A stretch of 64,000 nt of DNA from an uncultured Rhizobium sp. Its GTDB lineage: Bacteria; Pseudomonadota; Alphaproteobacteria; SMXQ01. Location of the stretch: the NCBI GenBank assembly GCA_964628235.1, contig CAZVLU010000005.1, forward strand, positions 16,296 to 80,295. The letters are read 5' to 3'. Below, piece by piece: positions 10,071 through 59,319 of this stretch (its first letter is position 1; every line of letters begins with the position of its first letter). The notes beneath the pieces are model-generated. The model saw only the letters and a list, made by a program, of their open reading frames with translations. It was not told the DNA's origin and did no database searches. Made by a program: the position numbers and the translations under genes.

Positions 10071-10259
10071 GGAACTCTCCGTTTAAATGACTGTTCCCGA
10101 TGCTAACGGCGCGGCAATCAAAATGCTGCGACGCAAAACATCCATCATAAAACGTCCATATCTATGGCAAAGACGATCACAACGTCGCGCGGGCAAGCGC
10201 GTCGCGCGTTCAATGCGGGTTTGAACGCGTCATCGATTCGGCAAGTTGTGAGTGAAAAT

Positions 10260-10336
10260 GGTCGGGACGATAGGATTTGAACCTACGACCCTCAGACCCC
10301 CAGTCTGATGCGCTACCAGGCTGCGCTACGCCCCGA
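10260..10336 (-). tRNA. tRNA-Pro (anticodon GGG)
   Basis: Reverse complement CGGGGCGTAGCGCAGCCTGGTAGCGCATCAGACTGGGGGTCTGAGGGTCGTAGGTTCAAATCCTATCGTCCCGACCA folds as cloverleaf; anticodon loop CTGGGGG; CCA end; coordinates hand-counted (+/-1). Confidence 0.85.
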
Positions 10337-29284: not shown

Positions 29285-29442
29285 TTCTTCACAGCCTCCT
29301 TGTATATTTCAAGATCCTCGGATTCGATCTTCGGCGGGCGGCCCGGCAGATACGCCAAAAGCCCGGCCAGGCGCAGGCGCTTGACCGTCGAGACCGAACA
29401 ACGAAGCTCTTTAGCGACTTCCGTTTCCGTCAATAGCGGCAT
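29128..29442 (-). CDS. excisionase / AlpA-like HTH DNA-binding protein
   Basis: Internal start MPLLTETEVAKELRCSVSTVKRLRLAGLLAYLPGRPPKIESEDLEIYK (HTH_17-like); 3' part overlaps integrase start, true stop/extent uncertain. Confidence 0.5.
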   Translation of the reverse strand: MPLLTETEVAKELRCSVSTVKRLRLAGLLAYLPGRPPKIESEDLEIYKEAVKKCQRPTSSPTKTASSTFTGPNQAPRANEDAASASARARRIWALRRLSSASGS

Positions 29443-29899
29443 CGTCGGCCTGCAACAGCTCGGCGACCTTGAGCGCCGTGGTGAGATAAACGAGTTTGTT
29501 GACGCGGAGGAACGCGAGGTTCGGCGCCGTGCTGCTCGCCTTGACCTCGAAGGCGGCAACGGCCGCTTCCGGCGTTTGGCTGGCGTCGTCTGCGAAGCGA
29601 ATGCCTCGATTGTAGCGGGTGGGCTCCAGCTCCTCGGGCTTCATGTCGAAGACCTTCGCCAGCTTCTCAAGGTTTTCGTCGTCCGGCAGGACGGCCGCGC
29701 GGATATAGGTCGAGATGGCCGCGCGCTGAATGTCAGCCCGGCGTGCCAATTCGCTTTGGTGCCAGCCCTTGCTGACCATCAGCTTGTAGAGACGCCGACT
29801 AAATTCCTTTTTCGCCGTCTGTTTAGCTGAAATGCGATCTTTCGCGCTCGCATCAGCTAACTCGTTTTCCCCGGTGCGGGAGCGAGGTTTTCTAGCCAT
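29411..29899 (-). CDS. XRE-family (Cro/CI-type) repressor-like protein
   Basis: HTH: LYKLMVSKGWHQSELARRADIQRAAISTYIRAAVLPDDENLEKLAKVFDM; divergent from a Cro-like gene. Confidence 0.7.
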   Translation of the reverse strand: MARKPRSRTGENELADASAKDRISAKQTAKKEFSRRLYKLMVSKGWHQSELARRADIQRAAISTYIRAAVLPDDENLEKLAKVFDMKPEELEPTRYNRGIRFADDASQTPEAAVAAFEVKASSTAPNLAFLRVNKLVYLTTALKVAELLQADDAAIDGNGSR

Positions 29900-30006
29900 C
29901 TTTTCGGCTCCAAACGATTAATTAAGTATGTCTGTTGTATATCTTAAAACAGGCGCTTGCAAGACAATTTGTCTGCATCCTCTTGACGCGCTACAGGGGC
30001 GGTTCT
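29900..30006. promoter_or_regulatory. divergent lysogeny-switch promoter/operator region
   Basis: AT-richer intergenic region between repressor (-) and Cro-like (+) genes containing tatgtctgttgtatatc and aatttgtctgcatcctcttgacg. Confidence 0.5.
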
Positions 30007-35160: not shown

Positions 35161-35781
35161 ATGGCCTCGCGTTCCGAAGACCTCAAGACGTGCCTTGTCC
35201 GCGCCGCTTTCACGCAGGGTTTGTTCGAGCTGCAAACCACGCAGAACGGCAAGAAGCAATGGGGCTGCTCGCTGCTCTTTCCCAAGGGCACCGACATGAC
35301 GCCCTACGAGAATGCCGCTCTGGAGGCCGCCAAGGCCGAGTGGGGCGACAAGGCCGTGCAGCTCATCAAGGACGGCCTGGTGCATAACCCGTTCCTCGAC
35401 GGCGACGGGCCGCAGGGCAAGAGCAAGAAGACCGGCGAGCCGCACGCGGGCTTCCCCGGCACCGTGTTTCTGCGCGTGATTTCCGGCGAAGACTACCGCC
35501 CGAAACTCGTCAACAAGAAGGTGCTGCCGATCACCGGCAAGGACGAGCTTTATTCCGGCTGCTACGTCTACGCCGTCATCAACGCTTTCACCTGGGAGAA
35601 CAAGGAGAAGGGCAAGGGCATCAGCTTCGGCGTGTCGATGATCCAGTTCGCCAAGGATGGCGAACGGCTCGGTGGCAGCGGCGGAGGCGATCCCGAGGAC
35701 CACTTCGAGAAGATCGAAGACGAAGGCGAAGCCCCCGCCGCGACCAAGACGGGCAAGGGCGCCGGCGGCCTCTTCGGCTAA
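35161..35781 (+). CDS. DUF2815 phage ssDNA-binding protein
   Basis: 206 aa; RLIFPKG-like LLFPKGTDMTPYE...SGCYVYAVINAFTWEN. Confidence 0.75.
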   Translation: MASRSEDLKTCLVRAAFTQGLFELQTTQNGKKQWGCSLLFPKGTDMTPYENAALEAAKAEWGDKAVQLIKDGLVHNPFLDGDGPQGKSKKTGEPHAGFPGTVFLRVISGEDYRPKLVNKKVLPITGKDELYSGCYVYAVINAFTWENKEKGKGISFGVSMIQFAKDGERLGGSGGGDPEDHFEKIEDEGEAPAATKTGKGAGGLFG

Positions 35782-36263: not shown

Positions 36264-36995
36264 ATGGAATTGACCCCGAACGATGTCCGCTTCGTCGTGC
36301 AGCGTCTCCCGCGCGACGTTCGCGACATGCTGTCGCACCACCCCCGCAGGCTCTATGTCGGAGGCGGTTTCGTCCGCGCTGTCGTCGCCGGCGAGACGCC
36401 CAACGACATCGACGTTTTCGGCCCGAGCGCCGAATATCTCGAAAACGTCGCGAACCTGCTCGCCGCCAATCGGCCAGGCTCGAAGCTGCACAAATCGAAA
36501 AACGCGATCACCCTGCTCACGCCCGAGCGCATGGCGGTCCAATTCATCACGCGCTGGACCTTCGAGAAGCCGCGCGACGTCATCCGCTCCTTCGACTTCA
36601 CCGTCTGTCAAGCGGCCGTCTGGCGCGCCGGCAGCCAGTCCAACGCGAAGTGGGAGTCGGAAGTCGGCCCCGACTTCTATGTCGACCTGGCCGGACGGCG
36701 GCTCGTCTACACGAGCCCGATCCGCGAGGAGGAGCCGGGCGGCTCCATGCTGCGCGTCATCAAATACGTCAAACGCGGCTACTCGATCCAGGTCGCCAGC
36801 CTCGGCGCCGTGATCGCCCGCCTCACGAGCAAGGTCCGTGACAGTCACCTCGCCGGCGACGAGGCCGGCGCGGCCCTCTGCATCGCCGGGCTTCTACGCG
36901 AGGTCGACCCGCTCTTCGTGATCGACGGTTTCGAGATCGTCGACGACCACGCGCCGATCGAAGGCGACGTGCAGGAGGGCCTTGCCAATGGTTAA
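36264..36995 (+). CDS. Pol-beta superfamily nucleotidyltransferase (CCA-adding/poly(A) polymerase head-like)
   Basis: GGGFVRAVVAGETPNDIDVFG matches GGxVRDxLLG...DIDI motif of the PolyA_pol/CCA-enzyme head domain. Confidence 0.5.
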   Translation: MELTPNDVRFVVQRLPRDVRDMLSHHPRRLYVGGGFVRAVVAGETPNDIDVFGPSAEYLENVANLLAANRPGSKLHKSKNAITLLTPERMAVQFITRWTFEKPRDVIRSFDFTVCQAAVWRAGSQSNAKWESEVGPDFYVDLAGRRLVYTSPIREEEPGGSMLRVIKYVKRGYSIQVASLGAVIARLTSKVRDSHLAGDEAGAALCIAGLLREVDPLFVIDGFEIVDDHAPIEGDVQEGLANG

Positions 36996-38906: not shown

Positions 38907-39602
38907 TTGATCGAAATTCTTCAAGGCGACTGCCTGGCGGAGATGAAAAAGCTTCCCTCCGACAGCGTCGATGTCGTCGCAACAGACCCGCCGTTCTCCA
39001 GCGGAACGCGGAAAGAGGGCGCGAAGGGCCTGCGTAAAAGCATGAGGCGCGGCGTCGCCAGCAATGCTTGGTTCGGCTCCGACAGTCTCACGACAAATGG
39101 CTTTCTTTGGCTCATGCGGTCGTGCGCCGTCGAGTGGCAGAGACTTCTAAAGCCAGGCGGTCACGCGCTTGTTTTTATCGACTGGCGCATGATGTCGGCT
39201 CTTGCCGGCGCGCTAGAAAGCGCCGATCTGCGCCACGCCGGACTCCTCGTATGGGACAAAACCTATTTCGGGATGGGAACTACCTTTAGAAATCAGCATG
39301 AGCTGATCCTACACTTCACGAAAGGCGTCCCGCCGGAGCCTGCGCGGCGCGATGTCGGGAACGTGCTCGCCTTCAAGCCCATACGCAACGGCCTCCACCC
39401 GACGGAAAAGCCGACAGAGCTTTTAGTCGAATTGCTCTCCGTCGTTGCTTTCAAAGGCGCGGTCGTCTTAGACCCCTTCGCCGGCTCCGGCGCTACGCTG
39501 GTCGCAGCGCAGCGTCAAGGTTGCAGCGCCATCGGCATTGAGCGTGAACAGCACTACGTCGACATCATGCGAAAGCGAACCGCAGGAGACGTTTTCGCAT
39601 GA
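38907..39602 (+). CDS. site-specific DNA methyltransferase (N6-adenine/N4-cytosine, beta class)
   Basis: TTG start; GDCL; catalytic DPPF; AdoMet motif DPFAGSGAT. Confidence 0.85.
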   Translation: MIEILQGDCLAEMKKLPSDSVDVVATDPPFSSGTRKEGAKGLRKSMRRGVASNAWFGSDSLTTNGFLWLMRSCAVEWQRLLKPGGHALVFIDWRMMSALAGALESADLRHAGLLVWDKTYFGMGTTFRNQHELILHFTKGVPPEPARRDVGNVLAFKPIRNGLHPTEKPTELLVELLSVVAFKGAVVLDPFAGSGATLVAAQRQGCSAIGIEREQHYVDIMRKRTAGDVFA

Positions 39603-41755
39603 GCCTTAAACTCGATTGGGAGACGCGCAGCGACATCGACCTGCTAAAGCGCGGCGTTTACGTCTACTGCGAAAGCCCCTACACCGACGCGCTGCTCGCC
39701 TCCTATCGCATCGGCGACGGCCCGCTGCGGCGCTGGAAGCGCGGCCAGCCCTGCCCGGACGACATTCGCGGGCATGTCGCCGCCGGCGGCGAGATCAAAG
39801 CCCACAACGCCGCCTTCGAGCGCCTGATCTGGTGGAAGATCATGCACGCCAGGCACGGCTGGCCGAAACCGCGCATCGAGCAATTTCGCTGCACAGCCGT
39901 AACGGCGGCCGCGATGAGCTTGCCGCGAAGCCTTGATCGGCTCGGCGCCGCGCTCGACCTGAAAGTAAAGAAAGACAAAAAGGGCAAAGCCCTGATTAAC
40001 AAGCACTCGAAGCCGTGCGGCTGGCGTCGAGACGAAGCCGGCCGCGACGTGCCGATTTTCGACGAAGACCCCGTGTCGCTGGAAGAGTTTCACGACTATT
40101 GCGACACCGACGTCATCACCGAAGAGGAGGCCGACGCGCGCCTCGTGCCGCTCTCCGAACAGGAACAGGCGGTCTACGTCCTGAACGAGAAAATCAACGA
40201 TCGCGGTATCCGGCTCGACGTGAAGTCCGCCCGCGCGGCCGTCGTCCTTATCGAGCGCGCCAAGGCAAAACTCGACCGCGAGATGAGGCTGACGACAGAC
40301 GGCTACGTCAAAGCCTGCACCAACGTCAAAGCGCTGGCCGAGTGGATCGAGGCTCAAGGCGTCGCGTTGGCGTCCGTCGCCAAGGAGGACATCGAGGAGC
40401 TGCTTGACGAGGTCGACGACCTCCCCGAGCGCGTCCATCGCGCGCTGGAGCTGCGCCAGGAAGCCGCCAAGACCTCCGTGTCGAAGATCGTTACCATGCT
40501 GGAGCGCGTGAACAACGATGGCCGAATCCGGGGCGTCTATCTCGACCACGGCGCCGGGCAGACCGGCCGCTTTTCGAGCCGCGGGGTCCAGGCGCACAAT
40601 ATGCCGACCTACCGGCCCGAGTTCGAGAGCGCGCACCTGCGCCTCGACTTGCTCTTCGAGGCGATCCGCAGCGGCCAGCCCGAAGCCCTGGAGTTCCTTT
40701 ACGGGCCGAAGCTCGGCCGCCCCCTCCACCTGCTTTCCGACGCCGTGCGCAGCTTCCTATGGGCCGCGCCGGGCCACGAAATGATCGTCGCCGACTACTC
40801 CTCGATCGAGGGCCGTCTCGCGGCCTATATCGCGGGCGAGGAGTGGAAGCTCGAAGCCTTCCGTAAATATGACCGCGGCGAAGGCCCCGGCATGTACGAG
40901 CTGACGGCGGCGCAGATCTATGACATCGACGTCGCCGACGTCGACAAGCCGAAACGCGCCGTCGGTAAGGTCGGCGAATTGTCGATGGGCTATCAAGGCG
41001 GCGTCGGCGCGCTCTCGAAAATGGCGCGGCAGAAAAAGCTCAAGCTGCATACGGTTTTCCCCTCCGTGTGGGCGGCCGCGCCGCAGGAGCGCCGCGAGGA
41101 AGCCGAATCGCGCTTCGACGAGCGCTTGCAGAAGAACGACGAGACCGCGAAAAAGCTCGGCCGCGAAGGCTGGATTGCCGGCGAGCTGGTCAAGGTGGGC
41201 TGGCGCCTGGCGCACCCGGCCATAACGAGCGCCTGGAAGCTGCTCGAAGAAGCCGTCTTTGCGGCCGTCACCGAGCCAGGCACGCAGCATCACGCGCTCG
41301 GCGTGACCTACCTCGTTGCGCACGGCTTCCTCTGGTGCCAGCTCGCCAGCGGCCGCTGCCTTGCTTACGGCCGGCCGCGCGTTCAGGAAGTCGAGGCGCC
41401 TTGGGCCGACAAGACCGTCGAGCCGAAGAAGCGCGAACAGAAAACCTCCGTGACGGTGCTCGGCGTCGACAGCCAGACCGAGAAGTGGGTCCGCTCGCCG
41501 ATCTATGGCGGCTCGCTGTTCAACAACGTCGTGCAAGGCACGGCGCGCGACGTGCTGGTGCATGGCATGTTCAACGTCGAGGCCGCCGGCTACCCGATCG
41601 TTCTGCACACGCACGACGAGGTCGGCGCCGAATTGCCGATCGGCGTCGGCGATCCCGAAGAGTTCGGGCGCATTCTGAATCGTCTGCCCGCTTGGTGCGC
41701 GGATCTGCCGCTCACCGCCGCAGCCTTCAAGACGAAACGCTACAGAAAAGATTGA
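39599..41755 (+). CDS. family-A DNA polymerase with 3'-5' exonuclease domain
   Basis: 718 aa; exo motifs LDWETRSDIDL, AHNAAFE; polymerase region RAVGKVGELSMGYQGG, HTHDEV. Confidence 0.85.
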   Translation: MSLKLDWETRSDIDLLKRGVYVYCESPYTDALLASYRIGDGPLRRWKRGQPCPDDIRGHVAAGGEIKAHNAAFERLIWWKIMHARHGWPKPRIEQFRCTAVTAAAMSLPRSLDRLGAALDLKVKKDKKGKALINKHSKPCGWRRDEAGRDVPIFDEDPVSLEEFHDYCDTDVITEEEADARLVPLSEQEQAVYVLNEKINDRGIRLDVKSARAAVVLIERAKAKLDREMRLTTDGYVKACTNVKALAEWIEAQGVALASVAKEDIEELLDEVDDLPERVHRALELRQEAAKTSVSKIVTMLERVNNDGRIRGVYLDHGAGQTGRFSSRGVQAHNMPTYRPEFESAHLRLDLLFEAIRSGQPEALEFLYGPKLGRPLHLLSDAVRSFLWAAPGHEMIVADYSSIEGRLAAYIAGEEWKLEAFRKYDRGEGPGMYELTAAQIYDIDVADVDKPKRAVGKVGELSMGYQGGVGALSKMARQKKLKLHTVFPSVWAAAPQERREEAESRFDERLQKNDETAKKLGREGWIAGELVKVGWRLAHPAITSAWKLLEEAVFAAVTEPGTQHHALGVTYLVAHGFLWCQLASGRCLAYGRPRVQEVEAPWADKTVEPKKREQKTSVTVLGVDSQTEKWVRSPIYGGSLFNNVVQGTARDVLVHGMFNVEAAGYPIVLHTHDEVGAELPIGVGDPEEFGRILNRLPAWCADLPLTAAAFKTKRYRKD

Positions 41756-41774
41756 GTGTCTTTTGTATGTCTAT

Positions 41775-41815
41775 TTTGTATGTTGACAAGTGACATACAT
41801 CGGACATATAGTCCT
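41775..41815 (+). promoter_or_regulatory. sigma70-like promoter embedded in palindromic operator
   Basis: TGTATGTTGACAagtgACATACA (TTGACA -35 inside inverted repeat) followed by TATAGT. Confidence 0.45.
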
Positions 41816-41819
41816 GAAT

Positions 41820-42041
41820 ATGGTTAATGAGCCTTCGGAGACAGTGGTGTCCCTCAAGAAATCGACAGCCCCCAAGCGGACCCTGACGACCATGCGCCTG
41901 CCGGTCGAGCTTATGAAGCAGCTCAAGATTGTCGCGCAGCGCGAGAACCGTTCTCGCTCGAACCTCGTCGAGAAGATCCTCCGCGACGCCTTGACGCGCC
42001 GCAAGAAGGACGACGCCGACGGCAAGTCCGTTTTCGGTTGA
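41820..42041 (+). CDS. ribbon-helix-helix (CopG/Arc) DNA-binding protein
   Basis: Start at M10 of the track ORF (upstream part lies in promoter); RLPVELMKQLKIVAQRENRSRSNLVEKILRDAL. Confidence 0.55.
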   Translation: MVNEPSETVVSLKKSTAPKRTLTTMRLPVELMKQLKIVAQRENRSRSNLVEKILRDALTRRKKDDADGKSVFG

Positions 42042-43820: not shown

Positions 43821-44125
43821 GACAGCCCGTGACATACCGCCGGCGCGCGCCGAAGACGCCAGGGCTGCACGACGAAGTGCGGATCTCGCTCAACGACGTC
43901 CACCTAGCGCACCGCGAGGCGGCTCTCGTCGCCGGCATGATGGCCGGCCACTGTCGAAAGCGGCCGCTGCTCGAATTTATGTTCGGCGCCGACAACCGCG
44001 TCAGCGATCGCTACCTCCGCGAGCTGGTGGGGCGCACCCGTAAGCGCCTCGCCGGGTCCGGCTTCACCATCACCGACTACGAACCCCGCGGCTACGCGAT
44101 CATTCTGGAGGCCAAGACACCATGA
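43817..44125 (+). CDS. hypothetical phage protein
   Basis: 102 aa coupled ORF. Confidence 0.35.
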   Translation: MRQPVTYRRRAPKTPGLHDEVRISLNDVHLAHREAALVAGMMAGHCRKRPLLEFMFGADNRVSDRYLRELVGRTRKRLAGSGFTITDYEPRGYAIILEAKTP

Positions 44126-45960
44126 AGCGTAAAATTCTAGTGGCGGATCTGCTCTGCGGCGCGGGCGGCTCCTCGACCGGCGCGGCGCAAGCGCTCGTCG
44201 AGCTTGGCCTCGATATGGAGCTGGTCTGCGTCAATCACTGGAATGTCGCGATCGAGACCCACAAGGCGAATCACCCGCACGCCCGGCATTACTGCCAGGA
44301 CATATCGACTGTCCGGCCGCACCTTGTGGTGCCCGAGGGCTATCTCGACCTGCTCATGGCGAGCCCCACCTGCACGCACCACTCCGTCGCGCGCGGCGGA
44401 AAGCCGACCAGCGACCAGCAGCGCTCCGACCCTTGGCATATCATAACCTGGCTGACCGAGCTGCGGGTCAAGCGAATCATGATCGAAAACGTATGGGAGT
44501 TCGTGAAGTGGGGTCCGGTCGACCCGCGCAGCGGCAAGCCCATCAAGTCGCGGCAGGGCGAATACTTCAACGCCTGGATCGAGACCATGCGCCGGCTAGA
44601 CTTCGAGCTGGAGTGGCGCAAGCTGAACGCGGCCGACTACGGCGAAGCGACGACGCGGCAGCGCTTCTTTCTCCTCGGCCGCAGCGACCGCAAGCGTATC
44701 GCCTGGCCCTCGCCGACGCACACGAAGCGGCAACCCGAAGCGCCGGCCGGTCTGCACCCTTGGCGGCCGGCGCGCGAGATCATCGACTGGAACATCAAGG
44801 GCCGGTCGATCTTCACGCGCAAGAAGCCGCTCGCGCCGAAGACCCTCGCGCGGATCTATGCGGGCGCCGTCAACCTTCAATGGCCCGAGCCGTTCCTCGT
44901 CATCTTGCGAAACCATATGGGCGCGCAATCCGTCGACGCGCCGTTGCCGACTGTGGCGGCGAACGGAACGCATATCGGCCTGGCGCAGCCCGTCGTCATG
45001 AACGGCCGGAAGGGCTCGAAGGCCAAAGGCGTAGAGACAGCGCCGATCCCGACGCTCGACACCAAGGGCGGCGTATGGCTCGCAGAGCCGGCGCTGATCG
45101 CCACGGCCCACGGAAACGCCGCGACGGAGAAGAACCCGAACAAGCGGCGCGCCAAAGGCGTCAGCGAGCCCTTGGGGGCGATCCACGCGAGCGGCGGTAA
45201 CTTCGCCGTCGCCGAGCCTCTGATCCTCTCGCAGCAAGCCAGCGGTCGGCCACGTTCGGCCGAGGAGCCGCTACCGACGATCTTGACCGGCGGCGCCGGC
45301 ACGGCGGAGCGGCCGGGCTGCGCGCGTCACGCTGTCGTGCAGCCTTTCGTCCTGTCCCGGCTCGGAAACGGCGCGCCCCGCCCGACCGACCAGCCGACGC
45401 CTACGCAGGTCGCGACGCACAGCCACGTTCTAATCGCGCCTTACTACAGCAGCGGCTCGGGCGAAACGTGCAAGAGCGCCGACGTGCCGCTCTCCTCCCT
45501 GACGACTAAGGCGCGCTTCGGCATGGTCATCCCCGTCACGCACAGCGGCGACGAGAGCAACCGCTCGCGCGACGTCGAGACCGACGGCTTGCCGACCGTA
45601 ACGGGCGCCAATCGCGGCGAGCTGGCTTTTATAACAGCCGCCTTCGGCGAGCGCGAAGGGCAGGCCCCGCGGGTTCATGATCTCGGAGAGCCGGCGCCGA
45701 CGATCTGCGCGACCGGCGGCAGCGTCAACCTGGTCGAGCCGACAGAGAGCTACGACATTCTATTTCGGATGCTCGAACCGCATGAGCTGGCGGCCGCGAT
45801 GGGCTTCAACGACGAAGACGCGACATACGCATTCAGCGGAAACAAGACCGAGCAGATAAAGCAAATCGGAAATGCCGTGTCCGTCCGGCAGTCAAAGGCC
45901 CTCGTCAAAGCGATGCTGGCCGACAGCGCCGAGCCGAGCAAGGCGGAGCGAGCGGCGTAG
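44122..45960 (+). CDS. DNA (cytosine-5)-methyltransferase
   Basis: Motif I LLCGAGGSS, catalytic-Cys region ASPTCTHHS, ENV motif IMIENVWEF, motif X IGNAVSV; long variable region. Confidence 0.8.
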   Translation: MKRKILVADLLCGAGGSSTGAAQALVELGLDMELVCVNHWNVAIETHKANHPHARHYCQDISTVRPHLVVPEGYLDLLMASPTCTHHSVARGGKPTSDQQRSDPWHIITWLTELRVKRIMIENVWEFVKWGPVDPRSGKPIKSRQGEYFNAWIETMRRLDFELEWRKLNAADYGEATTRQRFFLLGRSDRKRIAWPSPTHTKRQPEAPAGLHPWRPAREIIDWNIKGRSIFTRKKPLAPKTLARIYAGAVNLQWPEPFLVILRNHMGAQSVDAPLPTVAANGTHIGLAQPVVMNGRKGSKAKGVETAPIPTLDTKGGVWLAEPALIATAHGNAATEKNPNKRRAKGVSEPLGAIHASGGNFAVAEPLILSQQASGRPRSAEEPLPTILTGGAGTAERPGCARHAVVQPFVLSRLGNGAPRPTDQPTPTQVATHSHVLIAPYYSSGSGETCKSADVPLSSLTTKARFGMVIPVTHSGDESNRSRDVETDGLPTVTGANRGELAFITAAFGEREGQAPRVHDLGEPAPTICATGGSVNLVEPTESYDILFRMLEPHELAAAMGFNDEDATYAFSGNKTEQIKQIGNAVSVRQSKALVKAMLADSAEPSKAERAA

Positions 45961-47046: not shown

Positions 47047-49272
47047 ATGACGAAAACCGCAGCGTTTAGCAAGTTCTGGTCTCTCGGCTTCCGCTCGCTC
47101 GTGCCGATCACGCCGCCGGGCGCGGCCGTCTCCGAGAAATCGACACTGGCGAAACGACCGGGCTCGATCGGCAAAGCCGTCGGGATTCGGGGCGGAGATG
47201 GGCTCTGGCGCGGCTTCGATTGGGTCAAGCATCATACATCGGCGACAGACATCGAGGCATGGGCCGAGATGGGCGCCGGCGTCGGCATCCGCACGGGCGA
47301 CGGCATCATCGCCATCGACGCCGACACCTTCAACGCGAAGTATGTCGAGGAGATCGCCAAGGCGGCGAAGGCGCTGCTCGGCGACGCGCCCGTGCGCATC
47401 GGCAACCCACCTAAATTCCTTCTGCTCTACGCCGTCTCCGAGCCCGTGGCCTATCAGCGCGTGCTGTTCGACGACGGGCTGCCGTTCCGCCCTGGCGCCG
47501 AGCCGCGCGTCGAGATGCTGTCGGACGGCCGGCAGTTCGTCGCCGACGGTATCCACCCCTCCACCGGCAAGCCCTACACCTGGCCGGGCCGCGGGCTGTG
47601 GCCCCGCGACAAGCTCACCACCGTCACGCCGCAACAGCTCAACGCCTTCTTCGCCCGCCTCACCGAGATCCTGCCGGCAGCCGCGCGCGTCGAGACGACG
47701 GCAGCCAACGACCGCAGCAACATCGACCAGGCGTCGCTGGAAGGTGACAGCAAGACCGTCGAGGCCGCCGTGCGCGCCCTCCCCAACACCACCGAGCTAT
47801 TCCCGACCTATGACGACTACATCCGCGTCGGCGCCGCCATCAAGGGCGCGGCGCAGGGTCTCCCCGATCACGGTCTCGCCCTCTTCCTCGAATGGGCGGA
47901 GCGCTGGTCGGGCGGCAACGACCTGGAGCGCGCGGCGGCCGACTTCGCCCGGATCAAGCCGCCTTACGAGCTTGGCGCGCGCTGGCTCTACGAGATGGCC
48001 GACAGCCACGGCAAGGGCGCGTTCCGCCATGCCGACGTTTGGTTCGAGCCGCTGGCCGAGGTCGAGCTAAATCCCTTTGAGGCCGCCCGCCTCAAGCAAG
48101 CCGAAGAGACGCGCATCGAGCCGATCCGCTGGATACGGCCGAGCGAGTGGAAGGGCCGCACGCCGCCGGATCGCGAATGGGAGGTGGAAGGCTGGATACC
48201 CAAGGGCGAGGTGACGCTGCTCTACGGCGACGGCGGCATCGGCAAGACCCTCCTGGCCCACCAATACGCCACAGCGGCCGCGGCGGGCGTCTCATGGCTC
48301 GGGCTGAACACCCGGCAAGCCAAGGTCATGTGCTTTTTCTGCGAAGACAGCGAGGCCGAGCTGCACCGCCGGCAAATCGACATCAACAACGCCCTCTGCC
48401 TCGACTACGACCAGGCCGACGCCAATCTGCGCATCGCCAGCCGCAAGTACATGGACAACCTGTTCATTCTTTGGGACCGCAACACGGGGGCGATGAAGCG
48501 GCAAGCCGTATGGGCGCAGCTCCTAGAAGACGCCGTCGCCTTCGGCGCGGAGGTCATCGTCGTCGACACCATCGCCGACACCTACGGCGGCTCCGAGATC
48601 GACCGCGGCCAAGTCAACGCTTTCGTGAAGTCCTGCCTCGGCCGGCTCGCCTCCGAGATCCAAGGCTCGATCATCGCCCTCGGGCACCCGTCGATCGCCG
48701 GCAAGACAGAAGGCCGATCCGGCAGCACCGCCTGGAGCAACGCCGCGCGCTCGCGCCTGTTCCTGCGCTACCCGAAGAACGTCGAGAAGGGCGACATTCG
48801 CGAGCTGGAGGGCATGAAGCTGAATTACGGGCCGAAGGGCTCGCTGCTCAAGCTCCAGTGGAAGCGCGGCGCGTTCGACGTGCTGGCCGGTTCGACGGCG
48901 GGCACGGTCCATCTAAACGCCTTGAACGACCCCAAGACAGCGCCCGCCTTCGAGCGCATCGAGGATATGGCCGAGCGCGCCGTGCTCGCCGCCGTGGCGG
49001 CCGCCGAGGCGGAAGGCGTCGCGCTCGGGGCGTCCTCGCGGTCGCCCGTCTACGCGCCGCGCGTGCTCAAGCAGCGCGAGCCGGAAGCGCTGGCCGTCTA
49101 CACGGCCGAAGAGGTCGAGACGGCGCTAAGGAGCCTAGAACGGAGGGGGCTTGTTCAAGCCAAAGAGGTTGCGCGCCGTGGCAACCGTCACCCCGTCATG
49201 GGCTATGCCGTCGTCCGGCAAAAGCCGGAAGCGGCGGACAATCTGTCCGAAGGGTCGGGCGTTTTCCAGTGA
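47047..49272 (+). CDS. bifunctional primase-polymerase (Prim-Pol) / RecA-like helicase-loader replication protein
   Basis: N-terminal GAGVGIRTGDGIIAIDADT Prim-Pol motif; central Walker A LLYGDGGIGKT (AAA_25-like), Walker B VIVVDTIAD. Confidence 0.85.
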   Translation: MTKTAAFSKFWSLGFRSLVPITPPGAAVSEKSTLAKRPGSIGKAVGIRGGDGLWRGFDWVKHHTSATDIEAWAEMGAGVGIRTGDGIIAIDADTFNAKYVEEIAKAAKALLGDAPVRIGNPPKFLLLYAVSEPVAYQRVLFDDGLPFRPGAEPRVEMLSDGRQFVADGIHPSTGKPYTWPGRGLWPRDKLTTVTPQQLNAFFARLTEILPAAARVETTAANDRSNIDQASLEGDSKTVEAAVRALPNTTELFPTYDDYIRVGAAIKGAAQGLPDHGLALFLEWAERWSGGNDLERAAADFARIKPPYELGARWLYEMADSHGKGAFRHADVWFEPLAEVELNPFEAARLKQAEETRIEPIRWIRPSEWKGRTPPDREWEVEGWIPKGEVTLLYGDGGIGKTLLAHQYATAAAAGVSWLGLNTRQAKVMCFFCEDSEAELHRRQIDINNALCLDYDQADANLRIASRKYMDNLFILWDRNTGAMKRQAVWAQLLEDAVAFGAEVIVVDTIADTYGGSEIDRGQVNAFVKSCLGRLASEIQGSIIALGHPSIAGKTEGRSGSTAWSNAARSRLFLRYPKNVEKGDIRELEGMKLNYGPKGSLLKLQWKRGAFDVLAGSTAGTVHLNALNDPKTAPAFERIEDMAERAVLAAVAAAEAEGVALGASSRSPVYAPRVLKQREPEALAVYTAEEVETALRSLERRGLVQAKEVARRGNRHPVMGYAVVRQKPEAADNLSEGSGVFQ

Positions 49273-49470
49273 TTCGCGCTGCGTCAAGCTGCGTCGAGCT
49301 TCCTTGCAAGTCATTGATTTTGCTTGCGTCGAGCTTCGGCGGTTGTATGGCTGCGTCAAGCTGCGTCAAGCTGCGTCAAGCTTCCACGCAAACCATTGAG
49401 ATAAAAGAAAATTGGTGCTGTGCGTCAAGCTGCGTCGGGGTTCTGCGTCAAGCTTCACCCCTAAAGGGGG
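49273..49470. repeat. iteron array (putative phage replication origin)
   Basis: 8-9 copies of (C)TGCGTCRAGC within 200 bp incl. a 3x perfect tandem, AT-rich core gagataaaagaaaattgg, immediately 3' of primase gene. Confidence 0.7.
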
Positions 49471-49572
49471 AGGGCGCGGGCTTCGCCGCCCGCTCGCCGC
49501 CGCCCTCTCCCCTGGGGTCTTGGGCGCGGGGCTTCGGACAAATTGTCTTAGCAACGGCCGAGACCAGGCCCC

Positions 49573-49600
49573 AATAAAAAGGCCCGCCGATCATGGCGGA
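49573..49600 (-). terminator. rho-independent terminator of the antisense operon
   Basis: minus strand: CCGCCatgatcGGCGGgcctttttatt. Confidence 0.5.
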
Positions 49601-49679
49601 CCTTGCTGTCGTTTGTAGAGCCAGGCAGCGAGCCGCCCGGCATAGATGGCAGGGAGCGAGACCAGCCCGCAGAGCCCGG

Positions 49680-49949
49680 CTAAGGCGAGGAGCCAGAACA
49701 GCATGGACGCCCCCCTAGCTTTTCCCATTGCAGGCGGTCGTATTCCGCCACAAGCCTAGGCGAGCCGCGACCGATGGCGGGGCGCGTCGCGTAGGCGTTC
49801 TCTATCGCGAGCATGGCGAAGGCGACGCCTTCGGGGTCTTTCTTGGCGTTCTCCGCATTCTGGCTTGTCGGGTAGGCGTAGACAGTCGCGCCTGTCTTCG
49901 TGTCGCCGCAGACGAACGCGCCGTCGGGCATGAGCTTGTGCAGGATCAT
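49680..49949 (-). CDS. hypothetical protein
   Basis: 89 aa, last gene of antisense operon. Confidence 0.35.
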   Translation of the reverse strand: MILHKLMPDGAFVCGDTKTGATVYAYPTSQNAENAKKDPEGVAFAMLAIENAYATRPAIGRGSPRLVAEYDRLQWEKLGGRPCCSGSSP

Positions 49950-49953
49950 GGCG

Positions 49954-50643
49954 CTAGTCCTCTTCGGGGAAGCTGTCGGATTGCTCGCCCCGCTCGTGCT
50001 GATAGCGCGCCAGTCCGGCGGCCAGCTCGTCGCTTGTGGCGAGACGCCAGCCGTCGGGCAGGTTCTCCGCTCCGTCGTCGCCGTCGACGGTTTCGTCTTC
50101 GGGGTCTAGCTCTGCGTCGAAATTGCCGCGCGCCGATTCGAGAGCTTCGTCGAAGGGCTGCAAGTCGTCGACGCGCGCCAGGTGCATGAGATCGCAAAGC
50201 AGGTCGCGGAGGTGGCTTTCGTCGGGTTGTGGATCGCCGAGGGCGGCCCGATAGGCTTCGAGAGCCGCGCGGGCGCGCTCGGCGCGGTCTTCGTTCGTCG
50301 GCTCGCTTGTGAGAGGTTGCCGCGCGGCCGCTTCTAATTCGTCGTCTGTGTTTTCCTCCGTCGCGTCGGCTGCGGCTGACACCAGCGCGGCGGCCGCTGC
50401 GTCGGGCTGCGTGCCCTGCCCTTGCATGATCGCGGGCGTGGCGTCGAGATTGATATGCTCGCAAAGCTCGTCTATTTCGTCCGGGCTTAGGGGCTTGTCG
50501 TGATCGCCGTTGGCGATATCCCAAATCATGCGTTGTTGCGCCTTAGAGGGTGAGCTGCGCCGCTGGTGCCAGTGTTGCCAGAAGCGAAGCGCCGCAAGTG
50601 TGGTGTCGCGTTGGCGTTCGGATATTTCCAGGTCGATTTGCAT
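49954..50643 (-). CDS. highly acidic hypothetical protein
   Basis: Start moved to MQIDLEISERQ (RBS aaggacag); ~25% D/E. Confidence 0.5.
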   Translation of the reverse strand: MQIDLEISERQRDTTLAALRFWQHWHQRRSSPSKAQQRMIWDIANGDHDKPLSPDEIDELCEHINLDATPAIMQGQGTQPDAAAAALVSAAADATEENTDDELEAAARQPLTSEPTNEDRAERARAALEAYRAALGDPQPDESHLRDLLCDLMHLARVDDLQPFDEALESARGNFDAELDPEDETVDGDDGAENLPDGWRLATSDELAAGLARYQHERGEQSDSFPEED

Positions 50644-50654
50644 GATGGCTGTCC

Positions 50655-51089
50655 TTATGGCTGTGTGATCGGGGCGGCCGCGAGGTAGAGCCGCAGGGCG
50701 TCTAGCTCTTCGTGGCTGTCGAGGTATTCGCCTGCCGCGATGTTGGCGTCGGCAGCGTGGCGGCAAGCGCCGTCGAGGTGCGCGAGACATTCGGCGCGAT
50801 GGGCTTCGCTCTGGATCTTCGCGGTTGACGCGAAGGCGTAGAGGCAGAGCCCCGGATCTGTGTCGTTGATGTAAGACGCCCATTCGTGCGCGGCCGCGCT
50901 GGCTTCCTGCGCCGACAAGATCGGGTAAGCCCCGATTTTGGCGAGAGCTGTTTTCAGCTCGATAACGCGGGCGTCTAGCATTTCCTGCGTCGGGAAGCCT
51001 TCTTGGTTCGCCGCGTCCTGCTCGCACCATTCGAGGGCGCTTTTAAGTGCGGCGACGGTCTCCGCGCCAGGGTTGATTTCTTGCTGCAT
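50655..51089 (-). CDS. hypothetical protein
   Basis: 144 aa, coupled in antisense operon. Confidence 0.45.
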   Translation of the reverse strand: MQQEINPGAETVAALKSALEWCEQDAANQEGFPTQEMLDARVIELKTALAKIGAYPILSAQEASAAAHEWASYINDTDPGLCLYAFASTAKIQSEAHRAECLAHLDGACRHAADANIAAGEYLDSHEELDALRLYLAAAPITQP

Positions 51090-51155
51090 CGCTTGTGCTC
51101 CTTGTCCGGTCGAGAGGCAGAAAGGCGCGGCGCTACGGGGCGCCGCGCCAAGCGG

Positions 51156-52028
51156 TTAGGCCGCTTTGAGTTTCTGCATCTCGGCCGCGAGGGTCCAAAG
51201 GGCGCGGTTCAAGGCGACGTTGCCGTCGATACCGTTGACGGGGCGCGTCTGGCGACGCGCGACGCGGCGGCCGTTGGCGTCGCGCTGGACGTAGTCGAGA
51301 CCGCCGCGCACCAAGTTTTCCTGTGCGCGGTTGAACGTCCGCCACAGGTCATTGCCCGCGTCTTCGCGCCGGCGGGGTGCGTTGATGAGAGCCGGCGCGA
51401 TGGGCGCTTTGCCTTCCTCGAAGCGAAGCTCGGCCGCGGCGGCCGCGAAGGCTTCCTGCTCGCCAGGGTGCAATTCGATCGCGCGCATTTCGGCGACGCT
51501 GGCGTCGATCCGCGCGCCGTCTTCGATCACGCGATATGCGCCTTCGATCACTTGGCCGACGATGTCGCCTTTGTGCGGAATGCGGATCGACTGCATTTCG
51601 CCTTCGCAGACCACCAGGCCATTCGAGCAGACCATGCGGAAAAGCCCGCTCATGAGCTGGTAGGACGACGTTCCGTCGTGGCTGTTGAGCATGACCACTT
51701 CGCGCAGGCTGTCGCCGACAGTGACGGAGTCGGCGCGGCGGAAGCGGATGAGGTGCTTGGTAAAGCCCCGCTTTTCTTCGCTGCGCGAGCCGCCCTGCCG
51801 CACCTCATAGGGGAAAAAGCCCTCGTTGCGCAGGCCCGCGAGCACTTCGCGCGTCGGGATATAGGTGTATTTCTCGCTGCGGCTGTCGTGCTTGTCTTCG
51901 GCGAAGACCGAAGGGGCGACGCGCGCGATTTGCTCATCGTCGAGTGCGTCGCGCGAGCGAAGGATCGCGCCGCCCGCGCCAAAGCGAGAGATGCGACCAG
52001 AGCCAGAGGTCATGACGTTTGCATACAT
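51156..52028 (-). CDS. DUF932 (phage/plasmid-related) protein
   Basis: ~290 aa; YTYIPTREVLAGL...MLNSHDGTSSYQLMSGLFRMVCSNGLVV pattern typical of DUF932/TIGR03299. Confidence 0.7.
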   Translation of the reverse strand: MYANVMTSGSGRISRFGAGGAILRSRDALDDEQIARVAPSVFAEDKHDSRSEKYTYIPTREVLAGLRNEGFFPYEVRQGGSRSEEKRGFTKHLIRFRRADSVTVGDSLREVVMLNSHDGTSSYQLMSGLFRMVCSNGLVVCEGEMQSIRIPHKGDIVGQVIEGAYRVIEDGARIDASVAEMRAIELHPGEQEAFAAAAAELRFEEGKAPIAPALINAPRRREDAGNDLWRTFNRAQENLVRGGLDYVQRDANGRRVARRQTRPVNGIDGNVALNRALWTLAAEMQKLKAA

Positions 52029-52087
52029 TGGAGAGCCTTTCCGTTGTGCCCGCTTCGCGGACTGTTCAAAGGCGGGCGTTCCCGTCT

Positions 52088-52145
52088 CTGTATGGCTGTT
52101 GTATGCCTGTTGTATGTCTGTCGTCAACCGCCTTGATTGACAAAA
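52088..52145. promoter_or_regulatory. divergent promoter region with triple TGTTGTATG direct repeat
   Basis: ctgtatggcTGTTGTATGccTGTTGTATGtctgtcgtcaaccgccTTGATTGACAaaaa. Confidence 0.45.
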
Positions 52146-52211
52146 ATTTGCCGAGTAGGCGCGGAGGTGCTAAGGCTATTAGCGCCAATGGGTTACGGCG
52201 GAGGGCAAGGA

Positions 52212-52670
52212 ATGCCAGATCAGCGAGGGCGCAAGACGCCACAAGAAAGCCTCTTCGTTCAGGCGATGGCGGCCACGAATGACGCTGTGTTTTCGGCCCG
52301 TGAGGCCCAATACGCCCACCCCGCGCAACGTGCGCACGATTTAATGAAGCGGCCCGCGATTGTCGCGGAAGTGCTGCAATTGCAGCAGGAACGGCTGTTT
52401 AACGAGATTCTGCCGCTCGCCGTTGAGGTGCATAAGGCTCTCTTGCTCAATCCCGCGACGCCAGCGGGCGCGAAGGTGCGCGCCGTTGAGTTGGCGTATG
52501 ATCGGGCGTTCGGCGCGGAGGGTGCGGCCAGCGGCAAGCAACCGCACGAAATGACGGCCGATGAGCTGGCGCGCGAGCTGGATCGGCTCAAGAGCGAAGC
52601 GGCCGCGCGCGCTCGCCCCGTGATCGAGGGCACGGCCGAGACCGTCGAGGAGCCGGGCGTTTTCGCCTAG
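52212..52670 (+). CDS. terminase small subunit-like protein (Terminase_2-like HTH)
   Basis: TPQESLFVQAMAATNDAVFSAREAQYAHPAQRAHDLMKRPAIVAEVLQLQQE matches KLTPKQE.F...GNATQAA..AGYS...A...LLKNP.V TerS N-domain; RBS ggagg. Confidence 0.55.
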   Translation: MPDQRGRKTPQESLFVQAMAATNDAVFSAREAQYAHPAQRAHDLMKRPAIVAEVLQLQQERLFNEILPLAVEVHKALLLNPATPAGAKVRAVELAYDRAFGAEGAASGKQPHEMTADELARELDRLKSEAAARARPVIEGTAETVEEPGVFA

Positions 52671-52884
52671 CTGCGCCCTGCCTGCGCCCAAGTGTCTAGC
52701 CTAAGTGCTTGTTATACCGTGCTTTGCTTGGCTATATGCAACACTCCGCCCGGCTCGCTGCGCCTGGCGTCGAGCCCTGCCGGGGCGCGCCGCCCGCCGG
52801 GCCGACCCCCGGCCTATAGTCCGACGTCGCGCCGGATTCGGTGCCCCGACGCGCATAAAAATTTGCAGCCGAAAAACATTTTCG

Positions 52885-52940
52885 GACATTCTGTCTGCTA
52901 TCGCTTGACTGAATGACAGACACCGACCTACATTCCGCGT
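52885..52940 (+). promoter_or_regulatory. candidate late promoter flanked by palindromic TGTCTG operator
   Basis: TGTCTGctatcgcTTGACTgaatgaCAGACAccgaccTACATT (TTGACT-N18-TACATT). Confidence 0.4.
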
Positions 52941-57675: not shown

Positions 57676-59319
57676 ATGTCTAGCTCCGCTTCCAGCAGCA
57701 CTCGACCGATCCGGCGCCCCGGCGTGCCGGCCGTCGTTCGCGCGCGCGCCGACGATGTCGAGCTGGCCGAGATCAATAAGCGGATCAAGCTTCTCGAACG
57801 TCAACAGCGCGCCCTCGAAGCGCATGACGATCTGCTCGTCTACACCAAATTCACCATGCCCCACCCCGAGGCGCCGAACGACGTCAACCGTTCGCGCTAC
57901 GAGGACGAGCTGTTTCACCGCGAGGTGGCGAAGGCGCTCGAAGCTGTCGAGCGCGGCGAAATCGTCCAGCTCATCTATTGTATGCCGCCCCGCCACGGCA
58001 AGACCGAGATGGCGACGAAGCGCATGGCCGCCTGGTGTAGCGGCCGGCATCCCGATTGGGACGTCGCGGTCGCTTCCTACTCGGATACGATGGCGCAGGA
58101 CATGGGCGCCGACACGCGCGCTATCCTGACGTCGGCGCAGCACAAGCAGGTGTTCCCGAGCTATCGCCTGCGGCGCGGCGGAAACGCCAAGGATAACATT
58201 CAAACCGATCGGGGCGGCCGTATCGTTTTCGTCGGCCGCGGCGGCGCGCTCACGGGCCGCGGTATGCATATCGGCCTCGGCGACGATCTGTTTAAGGACC
58301 ACGAAGAGGCGCGGTCGCAGGCCATTCGAGACCAGGCTTGGAATTGGTTCACGAAGGTCTTCATGACTCGCCGAATGGGCCTCAAGCTGGTCATCCTGAC
58401 GATGACGCGCTGGCATAGCGACGACATCATCGGCCGCCTCACCGACCCGGAAAATCCCTACTACAACGCCATCGAGGCGAAAAAATGGAAGATTATCCGC
58501 CTGCCGGCCATCGCCGAAGACGACGACCCGCTCGGCCGCACGCCTGGCGAGGCGTTGTGGCCGGCGCGCTACGACCTGGATTTTCTTGAGAGCCAGCAGC
58601 GCCTCGATCCTCTCGGCTTCGCCTCGCTCTACCAGCAGCGGCCGAGCGTCGCCGACGGCGTGCTGTTTCGTCGCGAGAACGTGCGCTACTACAAGCCGAG
58701 CGAGCTTCCCGAGGATCTGCGGATCTATTGCGCGAGCGATCACGCCGTTTCGACCGGCCAGCGCAACGACCCGACCGTTTTGCTGAAAGTCGGCATCGAC
58801 CGTCAGAGCAACATCTATCTGCTCGAATGCTACTGGCAGAAAGTGAAAACCGACGTCGCTGTCGAAGCGATGCTCGAAATGGGCCGGGGCAACATGCGCC
58901 CGCTGATCTGGTGGGCGGAAAAAGGTCATATCTCGAAGTCGATCGGGCCATTCCTCTACAAGCGCATGGTGGAGACGCAGACTTACCTGAATATCCGCGA
59001 AGTGCCGCCGATCGGCGACAAGGAGCAACGCGCGCAGTCGATCGCCGCGCGGCACGGCATGGGGAAGGTGTTTTTCCCGATTGGCGCGCTTTGGACCGAG
59101 CGCGCGATCGAGGAAATGCTCGCCTTCCCGAACGGCACGCACGACGATTTCGTCGACACGCTGGCTTACATCGGCCTTGGCTTGCAGAGCCAATTCAAAG
59201 CCGGCGCGCCCGCGAAGAAAGAAAACGAGCTGCCGAAATTCGGATCGCTGGCTTGGGTCAAGTACATGGACAAATTCAAGCGGATGCAGCGCGAGCAGAC
59301 CGCCGCCGGAGGCTTTTAG
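57676..59319 (+). CDS. terminase large subunit
   Basis: Walker A CMPPRHGKTEMATK; C-terminal nuclease domain; Terminase_6-like. Confidence 0.9.
   Translation: MSSSASSSTRPIRRPGVPAVVRARADDVELAEINKRIKLLERQQRALEAHDDLLVYTKFTMPHPEAPNDVNRSRYEDELFHREVAKALEAVERGEIVQLIYCMPPRHGKTEMATKRMAAWCSGRHPDWDVAVASYSDTMAQDMGADTRAILTSAQHKQVFPSYRLRRGGNAKDNIQTDRGGRIVFVGRGGALTGRGMHIGLGDDLFKDHEEARSQAIRDQAWNWFTKVFMTRRMGLKLVILTMTRWHSDDIIGRLTDPENPYYNAIEAKKWKIIRLPAIAEDDDPLGRTPGEALWPARYDLDFLESQQRLDPLGFASLYQQRPSVADGVLFRRENVRYYKPSELPEDLRIYCASDHAVSTGQRNDPTVLLKVGIDRQSNIYLLECYWQKVKTDVAVEAMLEMGRGNMRPLIWWAEKGHISKSIGPFLYKRMVETQTYLNIREVPPIGDKEQRAQSIAARHGMGKVFFPIGALWTERAIEEMLAFPNGTHDDFVDTLAYIGLGLQSQFKAGAPAKKENELPKFGSLAWVKYMDKFKRMQREQTAAGGF

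Follow-up and report, generated by a model that had tools for sequence, protein, structure and literature searches.

The window analysed here is a 64,000-nucleotide stretch of DNA from an uncultured Rhizobium sp. (contig CAZVLU010000005.1), about 36 kb of which belongs to a prophage. Positions 49273-49578 of the window very likely constitute the vegetative replication origin of this prophage, served by a putative 741-residue initiator whose gene lies immediately upstream. The initiator is a predicted fusion of primase and helicase, and the winged helix at its C-terminus is proposed to bind the short direct repeats (iterons) of the region. An original prediction, made from the letters of the window, had read the repeats as an iteron origin served by the adjacent Prim-Pol/helicase gene. 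This reading is supported, at the level of sequence, by the domains of the protein, by a layout conserved among relatives and by a co-variation between iterons and winged helix.

The repeat cluster and the adjacent gene

Eight exact copies of TGCGTCRAGC, all on the plus strand, start at 49280, 49290, 49325, 49352, 49362, 49372, 49421 and 49444, and a ninth, degenerate copy (TGCGTCGGGG) occupies 49431-49440. The nine copies are packed into 174 bp (49280-49453), adjacent iterons being spaced 10 bp apart, and iteron 1 begins 8 bp past the stop codon of the primase-helicase gene. A perfect triple tandem spans 49350-49382 (period 10, 100% matches). An AT-rich patch at 49393-49415 splits the cluster into six upstream and three downstream iterons. 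Outside the cluster, neither strand of the 64,000 bases carries a further exact copy, and no inverted copy was found. When one mismatch was allowed, the whole window contained 33 copies compared with a chance mean of 24, and what stands out is therefore the local clustering of the exact copies.

The number of copies claimed originally, eight good and one degenerate, was reproduced by the exact-match search, and the perfect triple tandem and the position directly downstream of the Prim-Pol/helicase gene were recovered as well. The AT-rich core at the centre of the repeats also exists (ccattgagataaaagaaaattgg, 70% A+T); its length is 23 bp instead of the 30 bp first given. The GC-rich inverted repeat after the core was found again, with arms of 16 nt at 49466-49481 and 49496-49511 that are 81% complementary. 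Two sets of parts had been overlooked, namely two conserved AT-rich 18-mers and a pair of palindromes bracketing the region. Finally, a junk open reading frame was said to be called across the repeats. Mechanical frames do cross them (49151-49399, 49412-49618 and 48147-49577 on the plus strand, 49366-49554 on the minus strand), but an independent gene call on the identical public contig placed no gene between the primase stop codon and 49591, a distance of about 300 bp. The repeat cluster is non-coding DNA separating convergent transcription units. No DnaA box was detected within or near it, an Rfam search of 48800-50200 gave nothing credible, and a sigma-70 promoter scan of 49000-50200 found none.

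In terms of nearest-neighbour duplex stability, the 20-bp stretch from 49394 ranks among the least stable 0.07% of the 64 kb, and the AT-rich element at 49389-49415 is the most easily melted stretch of the repeat region. The sole exact match in the window to the consensus of integration host factor (IHF; WATCAANNNNTTR) is AATCAATGACTTG on the minus strand at 49307-49319; chance would give 0.44 matches in the whole window. The features of the region are as follows, with the evidence in brackets.

47047-49272, plus strand: gene for the 741-residue putative initiator (Pfam, PHROG primase/helicase matches, structure-profile match)
48958-49212, plus strand: coding region of the C-terminal winged helix, about residues 638-722, the proposed iteron reader (structure model)
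49235-49249, no strand: left flanking palindrome CGGACAATCTGTCCG, within the D-N-L-S codons of the protein tail (inverted repeat with 49532-49547, conserved offset)
49280-49299, plus strand: iterons 1-2 (TGCGTCAAGC, TGCGTCGAGC), a 10-bp tandem (exact match, repeat finder)
49307-49324, no strand: AT-rich conserved 18-mer no. 1, CAAGTCATTGATTTTGCT, a candidate IHF site or unwinding element (IHF-consensus match, recurrence in relatives)
49325-49334, plus strand: iteron 3 (TGCGTCGAGC) (exact match)
49352-49381, plus strand: iterons 4-6, TGCGTCAAGC three times in perfect tandem (exact match, period 10)
49389-49415, no strand: AT-rich element no. 2, CAAACCATTGAGATAAAAGAAAATTGG, in which a diverged version of the 18-mer recurs, with an A-tract (stability minimum, second copy likewise placed in relatives)
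49421-49453, plus strand: iterons 7-9, namely TGCGTCAAGC, degenerate TGCGTCGGGG and TGCGTCAAGC (exact and degenerate match)
49458-49470, no strand: palindrome P1, CCCCTAAAGGGGG, directly past the last iteron (unique in the window, recurs in most iteron-bearing relatives)
49466-49511, no strand: GC-rich inverted repeat P2, GGGGGAGGGCGCGGGC ... GCCGCCGCCCTCTCCCC, whose G-run is common to P1 (inverted-repeat search, helix conserved in relatives)
49513-49531, no strand: conserved G-rich tail TGGGGTCTTGGGCGCGGGG after P2 (similar strings in relatives)
49535-49549, no strand: right flanking palindrome CGGACAAATTGTCTT (inverted repeat, motif count, relatives)
49579-49604, minus strand: intrinsic terminator of the convergent leftward operon and right limit of the non-coding region (10-bp stem with 7 GC pairs, T-rich tail; terminator scan)

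In the 741-residue protein, Pfam recognises a Prim-Pol domain (residues 59-180), PriCT_2 (241-318) and AAA_25, a RepA-type helicase domain (370-549), and PHROG gives matches to primase/helicase families. Ten relatives show no change in the DxD motif (D91, D93), Walker A (G394-K400) or Walker B (D507, T508). When a profile of ten relatives was compared with solved structures, RepA of plasmid RSF1010 was the best match (1G8Y, E=7e-6, residues 368-582), followed by a weak match to DnaB. By this profile match, the helicase motor is assigned to the RecA-fold RepA/DnaB type, unlike the AAA+ motors of Rep from Staphylococcus aureus pathogenicity islands (SaPI) or of pRN1 ORF904. A winged-helix profile and the full-length protein had no significant match among PDB sequences, only the ten-sequence profile reaching RepA, and Pfam and PDB searches of the protein gave no match to RepC or RepB'. 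For the C-terminal approximately 90 residues, structure prediction yielded a confident winged-helix model. The family numbers at least 221 homologues at E<=1e-20, with named sources that include Devosia, Rhizobium, Rhodopseudomonas, Bradyrhizobium, Methylorubrum and Mesorhizobium.

The extreme C-terminus of the protein reads ...GSGVFQ (49258-49269), and that of a gp2.5-like single-strand-binding protein of the prophage reads ...GAGGLFG (35767-35778). A terminus of the form hydrophobic-F/L-x is present in 106 of 113 homologues. In phage T7, gp4 and gp2.5 touch the T7 polymerase via C-terminal Phe tails. By analogy, such a Phe-like tail would fit a 741-residue protein acting at the fork with the family-A polymerase of the phage.

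Conservation among relatives and the link to the winged helix

The DNA of relatives was fetched from viral, genome and metagenome collections, and repeats were counted as direct 9-mers, with one mismatch allowed, at most 330 bp past the stop codon at 30 loci that possess the C-terminal domain and enough downstream sequence. At 25 of these loci, 5-12 copies follow the stop codon. Shuffled sequences gave 2-3 copies and the coding sequence of the same loci 2-4, except for one control window that scored 9. The iterons differ by lineage (for example TGCGYCAA, TGCGGCGT, TGCGTCGAGGT, TGCAGCAGGG, YCGCAAAG, CGTYCGAGTC, TTGCATCAA and GGCGGAGAT), and many start with TGC. While the iterons vary across lineages, the two AT-rich 18-mers, the CCCCTAWAGGGG palindrome and the adjoining hairpin keep their order; relatives share the collinear succession of iterons, AT motif, iterons, AT motif, iterons and palindrome. 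One or two copies of the AT 18-mer YAAGTCATTGAWWTYRYT are interleaved with the iteron groups across relatives, and the AT motif YAAGTCATTGAWWT occupies the same relative position, including in the Rhizobium phage RHph_N65. The constancy of this 18-mer amid changing iterons points to a conserved partner, candidates for which are host IHF or a conserved helicase or primase surface that acts on an unwinding element.

In most iteron-bearing relatives, P1 stands right past the last iteron in the form CCCC(C)-TAWA/TACG-GGGG(G). The longer inverted repeat P2, which contains the G-run of P1, is conserved across relatives as a helix. An anchored helix search with shuffle controls identified a helix at the P2 position in 15 relatives, in which the arm sequences differ (5' arms such as GAGGGCG, GAGCGCGC, GCGGGCG, GAAGGCCTGG and ATAGGGTATGG) and complementarity is kept. 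The summed helix score of 127 compares with a maximum of 97 in 200 shuffles. RNAalifold, applied to a MAFFT alignment of the hairpin region, returned just three invariant pairs, all in P1, the loops being unalignable. P2 lacks a T-tail and is therefore not a canonical terminator. After it, GGGGTCTTGGGG(C)GCG-like strings are present in four relatives (L115, L117, L108 and L137).

The left flanking palindrome and 49532-49547 form an inverted repeat of 16 nt with 94% complementarity, which brackets the iteron region. Their common motif, GACA-N3-TGTC, occurs five times in the window compared with 0.59 expected. The other copies lie at 29963-29973, 36324-36334 and 52885-52895, and those at 29963 and 52885 are intergenic, each preceding a CTTGAC hexamer by 8-9 nt in a promoter-like region. 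Several relatives carry the motif at matching offsets (background 0.05 per kb). At the protein level, 22 of 113 homologues carry D[NK][LM]S within their final 50 residues and have it at no other place. Judged by its sequence, GACA-N3-TGTC looks like a regulator binding site, for which the repressor-like product of 29411-29899 and the Arc-like product of 41790-42041 are candidate binders.

The full layout is also present in the cultured Rhizobium phage RHph_N65 (MN988536), whose primase-helicase is 31% identical. Here, about twelve GGCGGAGAT repeats with two TAAGTSMTTGAAATCATTG motifs are followed by CCCCCTATATAGGGG, a hairpin and a small gene, read leftward, that encodes a hydrophobic peptide. 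The primase-helicase is the sole gene that always adjoins the repeats; what lies upstream of it changes from locus to locus (a PLD-family gene, HTH_17, endonuclease I). Its carriers include phages encoding a family-A polymerase (PolA) and small serine-recombinase (resolvase) islands.

Viral contigs were also searched with the motifs themselves. The TGCGTCAANNTGCGTCAA iteron dimer returned about 100 stretches, mostly single matches that are taken to be chance, and none with a primase-helicase relative; the CCCCTAWAGGGGGAGGGC palindrome returned only two unrelated AT-rich contigs. Several unrelated viral contigs contain clusters of direct and inverted TGCGTCAA octamers around AT-rich cores (L047 at about 300-550 and L039 at about 920-1100, both on the minus strand; L007/L028/L094). 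Their layout is origin-like, and they encode no detectable primase-helicase relative. L115 carries one more tandem array, of unrelated sequence (GGCGGCTCTGGGCACGCTG, about 5 copies at about 5750-5900), some 600 bp past the primase-helicase stop codon (5169), beyond the iteron, palindrome and hairpin region.

Lineages with an identical iteron have wing residues of the winged helix in common. The window and Devosia share both the wing GNRHPVMGY and the iteron TGCGYCAA, and a distinctive recognition helix and wing are common to the four YCGCAAAG lineages. L106, which at about 60% identity is the nearest relative of the window overall, differs from it in both the iteron (TGCGGCGT) and the wing (EDRKPVMGY). 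To quantify this relation, iteron-profile similarity was compared with domain identities by Mantel tests over 20 lineages (190 pairs). The partial correlation between iteron and winged helix, with the helicase controlled, was 0.40 (permutation p=0.0005), while the converse correlation with the helicase, with the winged helix controlled, was 0.07 (p=0.27). Reading of the iterons by the C-terminal domain would lead one to expect such co-variation.

Genomic setting, proposed mechanism and alternatives

From position 1 to about 27.9 kb, the window is ordinary bacterial chromosome (fabH, plsX, an H+-pyrophosphatase gene, ribD, and glyA at 25104-26414). The left end of the prophage is marked by a tyrosine integrase (28145-29284) and a repressor-like gene (29411-29899), both on the minus strand; a tRNA-Pro at 10259-10335, 18 kb distant, is not the site of integration. 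A rightward block then encodes a SNF2-type helicase, an exonuclease, the gp2.5-like single-strand-binding protein (35161-35781), DNA methyltransferases, a family-A DNA polymerase (39599-41755), a C5 cytosine methylase (44122-45960) and, last, the 741-residue protein. The repeats thus come last in the replication module. Beyond them, a short leftward operon of small genes (49591-52691) converges on the primase-helicase gene, followed by the late genes, whose products are a tail protein, an endolysin, the large terminase (57676-59319) and the major head protein. A polymerase and structural genes of its own make the carrier a complete prophage. In the convergent operon, the gene in last place encodes a peptide with one hydrophobic segment (24-45 residues across relatives; 49591-49728, minus strand, in the window). 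A small hydrophobic-peptide gene also adjoins the repeat region in relatives, RHph_N65 among them (L106, 2926-3036; L109, 6452-6565; L173, 4925-4999).

On the proposed mechanism, the initiator would be one polypeptide of four parts: an archaeo-eukaryotic-type primase composed of Prim-Pol and PriCT_2, a hexameric RecA-fold helicase of the RSF1010 RepA type, and the winged helix. The winged helices of assembling hexamers would dock on the nine direct 10-bp iterons, which lie one helical turn apart, and IHF or another conserved factor may bend the DNA at the two AT-rich 18-mers. The duplex would then open at the A-rich patch (49393-49415), the helicase would load itself on the exposed single strand, and the Prim-Pol domain would prime, after which the family-A DNA polymerase and the gp2.5-like single-strand-binding protein of the phage could take over. 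The GC palindrome and hairpin past the last iteron probably act either as a boundary to unwinding on one side or as a single-stranded priming or loading signal.

A more far-reaching proposal, which we put forward only tentatively, is that this locus exemplifies a widespread, undescribed replicon module of Alphaproteobacteria. In such a module, three functions of the IncQ type (an archaeo-eukaryotic primase, a RepA-type helicase and a winged-helix iteron reader) would be fused and paired with a compound origin, in which the iterons are specific to the lineage, the AT-rich 18-mers invariant and the GC palindrome structural. The whole might move among small recombinase islands, a cultured rhizobiophage and those temperate phages whose replication genes are T7-like. 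Through the GACA-N3-TGTC pair, one member of which lies within the coding sequence of the initiator, a phage regulator might additionally clamp the origin or draw it into a loop, which could for instance keep it silent in the lysogen.

Several observations weigh against an origin at this site. The AT patch is short, and at the 60-100 bp scale the region is merely within the least stable 2%; the least stable 100-bp duplex of the prophage, and indeed of the whole window, lies elsewhere (41729-41829). Taken alone, P2 is an imperfect hairpin of marginal significance in the window (P ~0.08 against shuffles, strict pairs), and the single-strand fold of 49450-49535 is no better than shuffles (z = -0.49). 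GC skew is uninformative, its cumulative turn at 48-50 kb coinciding with the switch of coding strand. Five relatives (L120, L124/L125, L130 and L136) have no repeats past the gene, their leftward genes abutting the stop codon, and the position of the repeats is therefore not obligatory. The Mantel result could partly reflect a faster clock of the winged-helix domain. In addition, the window ends inside the prophage, and the count of a single cluster covers only the in-window part. As to the unstable stretch at 41729-41829, it is situated just past the DNA polymerase gene and ahead of an Arc-like repressor gene (41790-42041); it is probably a promoter region and possibly an alternative site of DNA opening.

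This stretch, for example, could hold the true origin if the repeats were bound by the primase-helicase without being a start site, serving instead in copy control or handcuffing, as an auxiliary site like crr of P4, or as an autoregulatory sink. P4 uses two separate iteron clusters (PMC6092414, PMC4234260), and the five relatives devoid of post-gene repeats would also agree with such a role. However, there is no second iteron cluster in the 36 kb of in-window prophage, the region is complete in origin-type parts (iterons, AT-rich elements, GC palindrome), which are conserved jointly, and the small resolvase islands contain the gene and the region with little besides. We regard this explanation as unlikely. 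Slightly less likely still, in our view, is that another protein reads the repeats, be it the product of a small neighbouring gene or a host factor, the region remaining an origin or a binding array. Several uncharacterised small genes do flank both sides, and the winged-helix assignment is model-based, but the neighbours change among relatives while the primase-helicase is constantly adjacent, and iteron similarity tracks the identity of the winged helix, not that of the helicase. A host factor, moreover, cannot account for differing iterons among elements of related hosts.

Direct-repeat arrays with IHF sites are also present at cos sites, partition centromeres and att sites, and the region might instead serve packaging (pac/cos), partition or recombination and have no part in replication. 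A small-terminase gene indeed lies 2-3 kb further on in L106 and L115. On the other hand, the large terminase gene of the window is 8 kb off, and the resolvase islands have the same array by the primase-helicase with no terminase called in the 4-10 kb fetched around each. No ParA/ParB match appeared among the neighbouring genes scanned, a scan that did not cover every open reading frame. Since the prophage is integrated via the tyrosine integrase at 28 kb, an internal repeat site is not attP. Such a function is consequently rated as improbable, and lowest of all we place an ordinary 3' untranslated or terminator region, in which neutral tandem duplications would accompany a GC hairpin terminating the primase operon; this appears very improbable. 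The convergent operons, the clear terminator at 49579-49604 and the commonness of GC-rich hairpins at 3' ends would suit it. Yet the layout is kept down to 31% protein identity despite turnover of the repeat sequence, repeats are far more numerous than in shuffles and coding controls, no T-tail follows the P2 hairpin, and neutral repeats would not follow the winged-helix domain. An origin served by the adjacent initiator remains the reading that we favour.

Relation to known replication systems

Three hallmarks of a generic iteron origin with an initiator encoded in cis are found here, namely a repeat cluster, an adjacent melting stretch and an adjacent putative initiator gene with a predicted DNA-binding domain; binding of the iterons by the initiator has indirect support from their co-variation with the winged helix. 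A full-text literature search found no paper on an origin for this primase-helicase family. For this large family, spread over prophages and islands of Alphaproteobacteria, the region and its gene provide concrete candidates for origin and initiator. The natural pairs of iteron and winged helix are a ready series for studying how specificity of DNA recognition evolves, and a minimal cassette of gene plus origin could be a vector backbone for Hyphomicrobiales.

By function, the closest analogue is the rep-ori of SaPIs and other phage-inducible chromosomal islands (PICI), together with the Cch2 origin of the staphylococcal cassette chromosome SCCmec, while the list of parts resembles that of the IncQ plasmid RSF1010. 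In SaPI/PICI and SCCmec Cch2, the helicase-initiator gene is followed immediately on its 3' side by the origin (PMC9371898, PMC6092414, PMC7581432). SaPI/PICI origins have 6-12 short iterons split around an AT-rich centre, with a primase that is fused (PriRep of SaPI5) or adjacent, and the SaPI initiator is a self-loading helicase whose C-terminal winged helix reads the iterons (PMC9371898, PMC6092414, PMC7581432). The region described here resembles them in the origin 3' of the initiator gene, the iterons set to either side of an AT-rich stretch and the fused primase. However, its helicase is of the RecA-fold RepA/DnaB-like type, whereas SaPI Rep and Cch2 are AAA+. All nine iterons run in the same direction, in contrast to SaPI origins, where those on the two sides are oppositely oriented (PMC9371898). 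The iterons measure 10 bp instead of 5-6 bp, and the conserved AT-rich 18-mers, the GC palindrome with its hairpin and the flanking palindromes are additional. Furthermore, the carrier is a complete prophage, not a phage-dependent satellite. Because of the helicase family, the one-way iterons and the full-phage carrier, the module of the window is not a member of the SaPI/PICI group.

RSF1010 iterons consist of about three 20-bp repeats, compared with nine copies of 10 bp here. The division of labour in that plasmid gives iteron binding to RepC, unwinding to RepA and priming at the ssi hairpins to RepB', with ssiA and ssiB as the priming start sites (PMC4234260, PMC8567376). The helicase domain of the 741-residue protein is homologous to RepA (1G8Y, E=7e-6), the same three functions of iteron binding, helicase and primase are needed, and in both systems the iterons are close to hairpin-forming inverted repeats with no DnaA box. 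The functions are united in one chain of 741 residues here, whereas RSF1010 has a separate RepC and RepB'. A possible counterpart of the ssi hairpins is the palindrome and hairpin conserved across relatives after the iterons.

The helicase of the P4 alpha protein belongs to superfamily 3 (SF3). This protein, too, unites a primase with a helicase and binds the repeats of its origin through a C-terminal winged helix, its primase being of the bacterial Toprim type (PMC4234260). The present protein differs in joining a Prim-Pol to a RepA-like helicase, and one cluster was found in the window where P4 needs two. The pRN1 ORF904 and Bordetella phage BIP-1 proteins contain a Prim-Pol (with PriCT_2 in BIP-1), a helicase and a C-terminal winged helix, with a stem-loop origin just 3' of the gene (PMC4234260). 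They share with the present system the Prim-Pol, the winged helix and the origin 3' of the gene, but possess an SF3 helicase and a long iteron-free stem-loop, whereas in the present region the iterons are the main feature, with the hairpin as an appendage.

To a specialist, an iteron origin past its initiator gene is unsurprising. The RepA-type fusion, the invariant AT 18-mers with the GC palindrome, and the natural series of iteron/winged-helix pairs are of use all the same. The origin-after-helicase-gene design, known from staphylococcal and enterobacterial satellites, occurs here with an unrelated helicase, which suggests convergent assembly.

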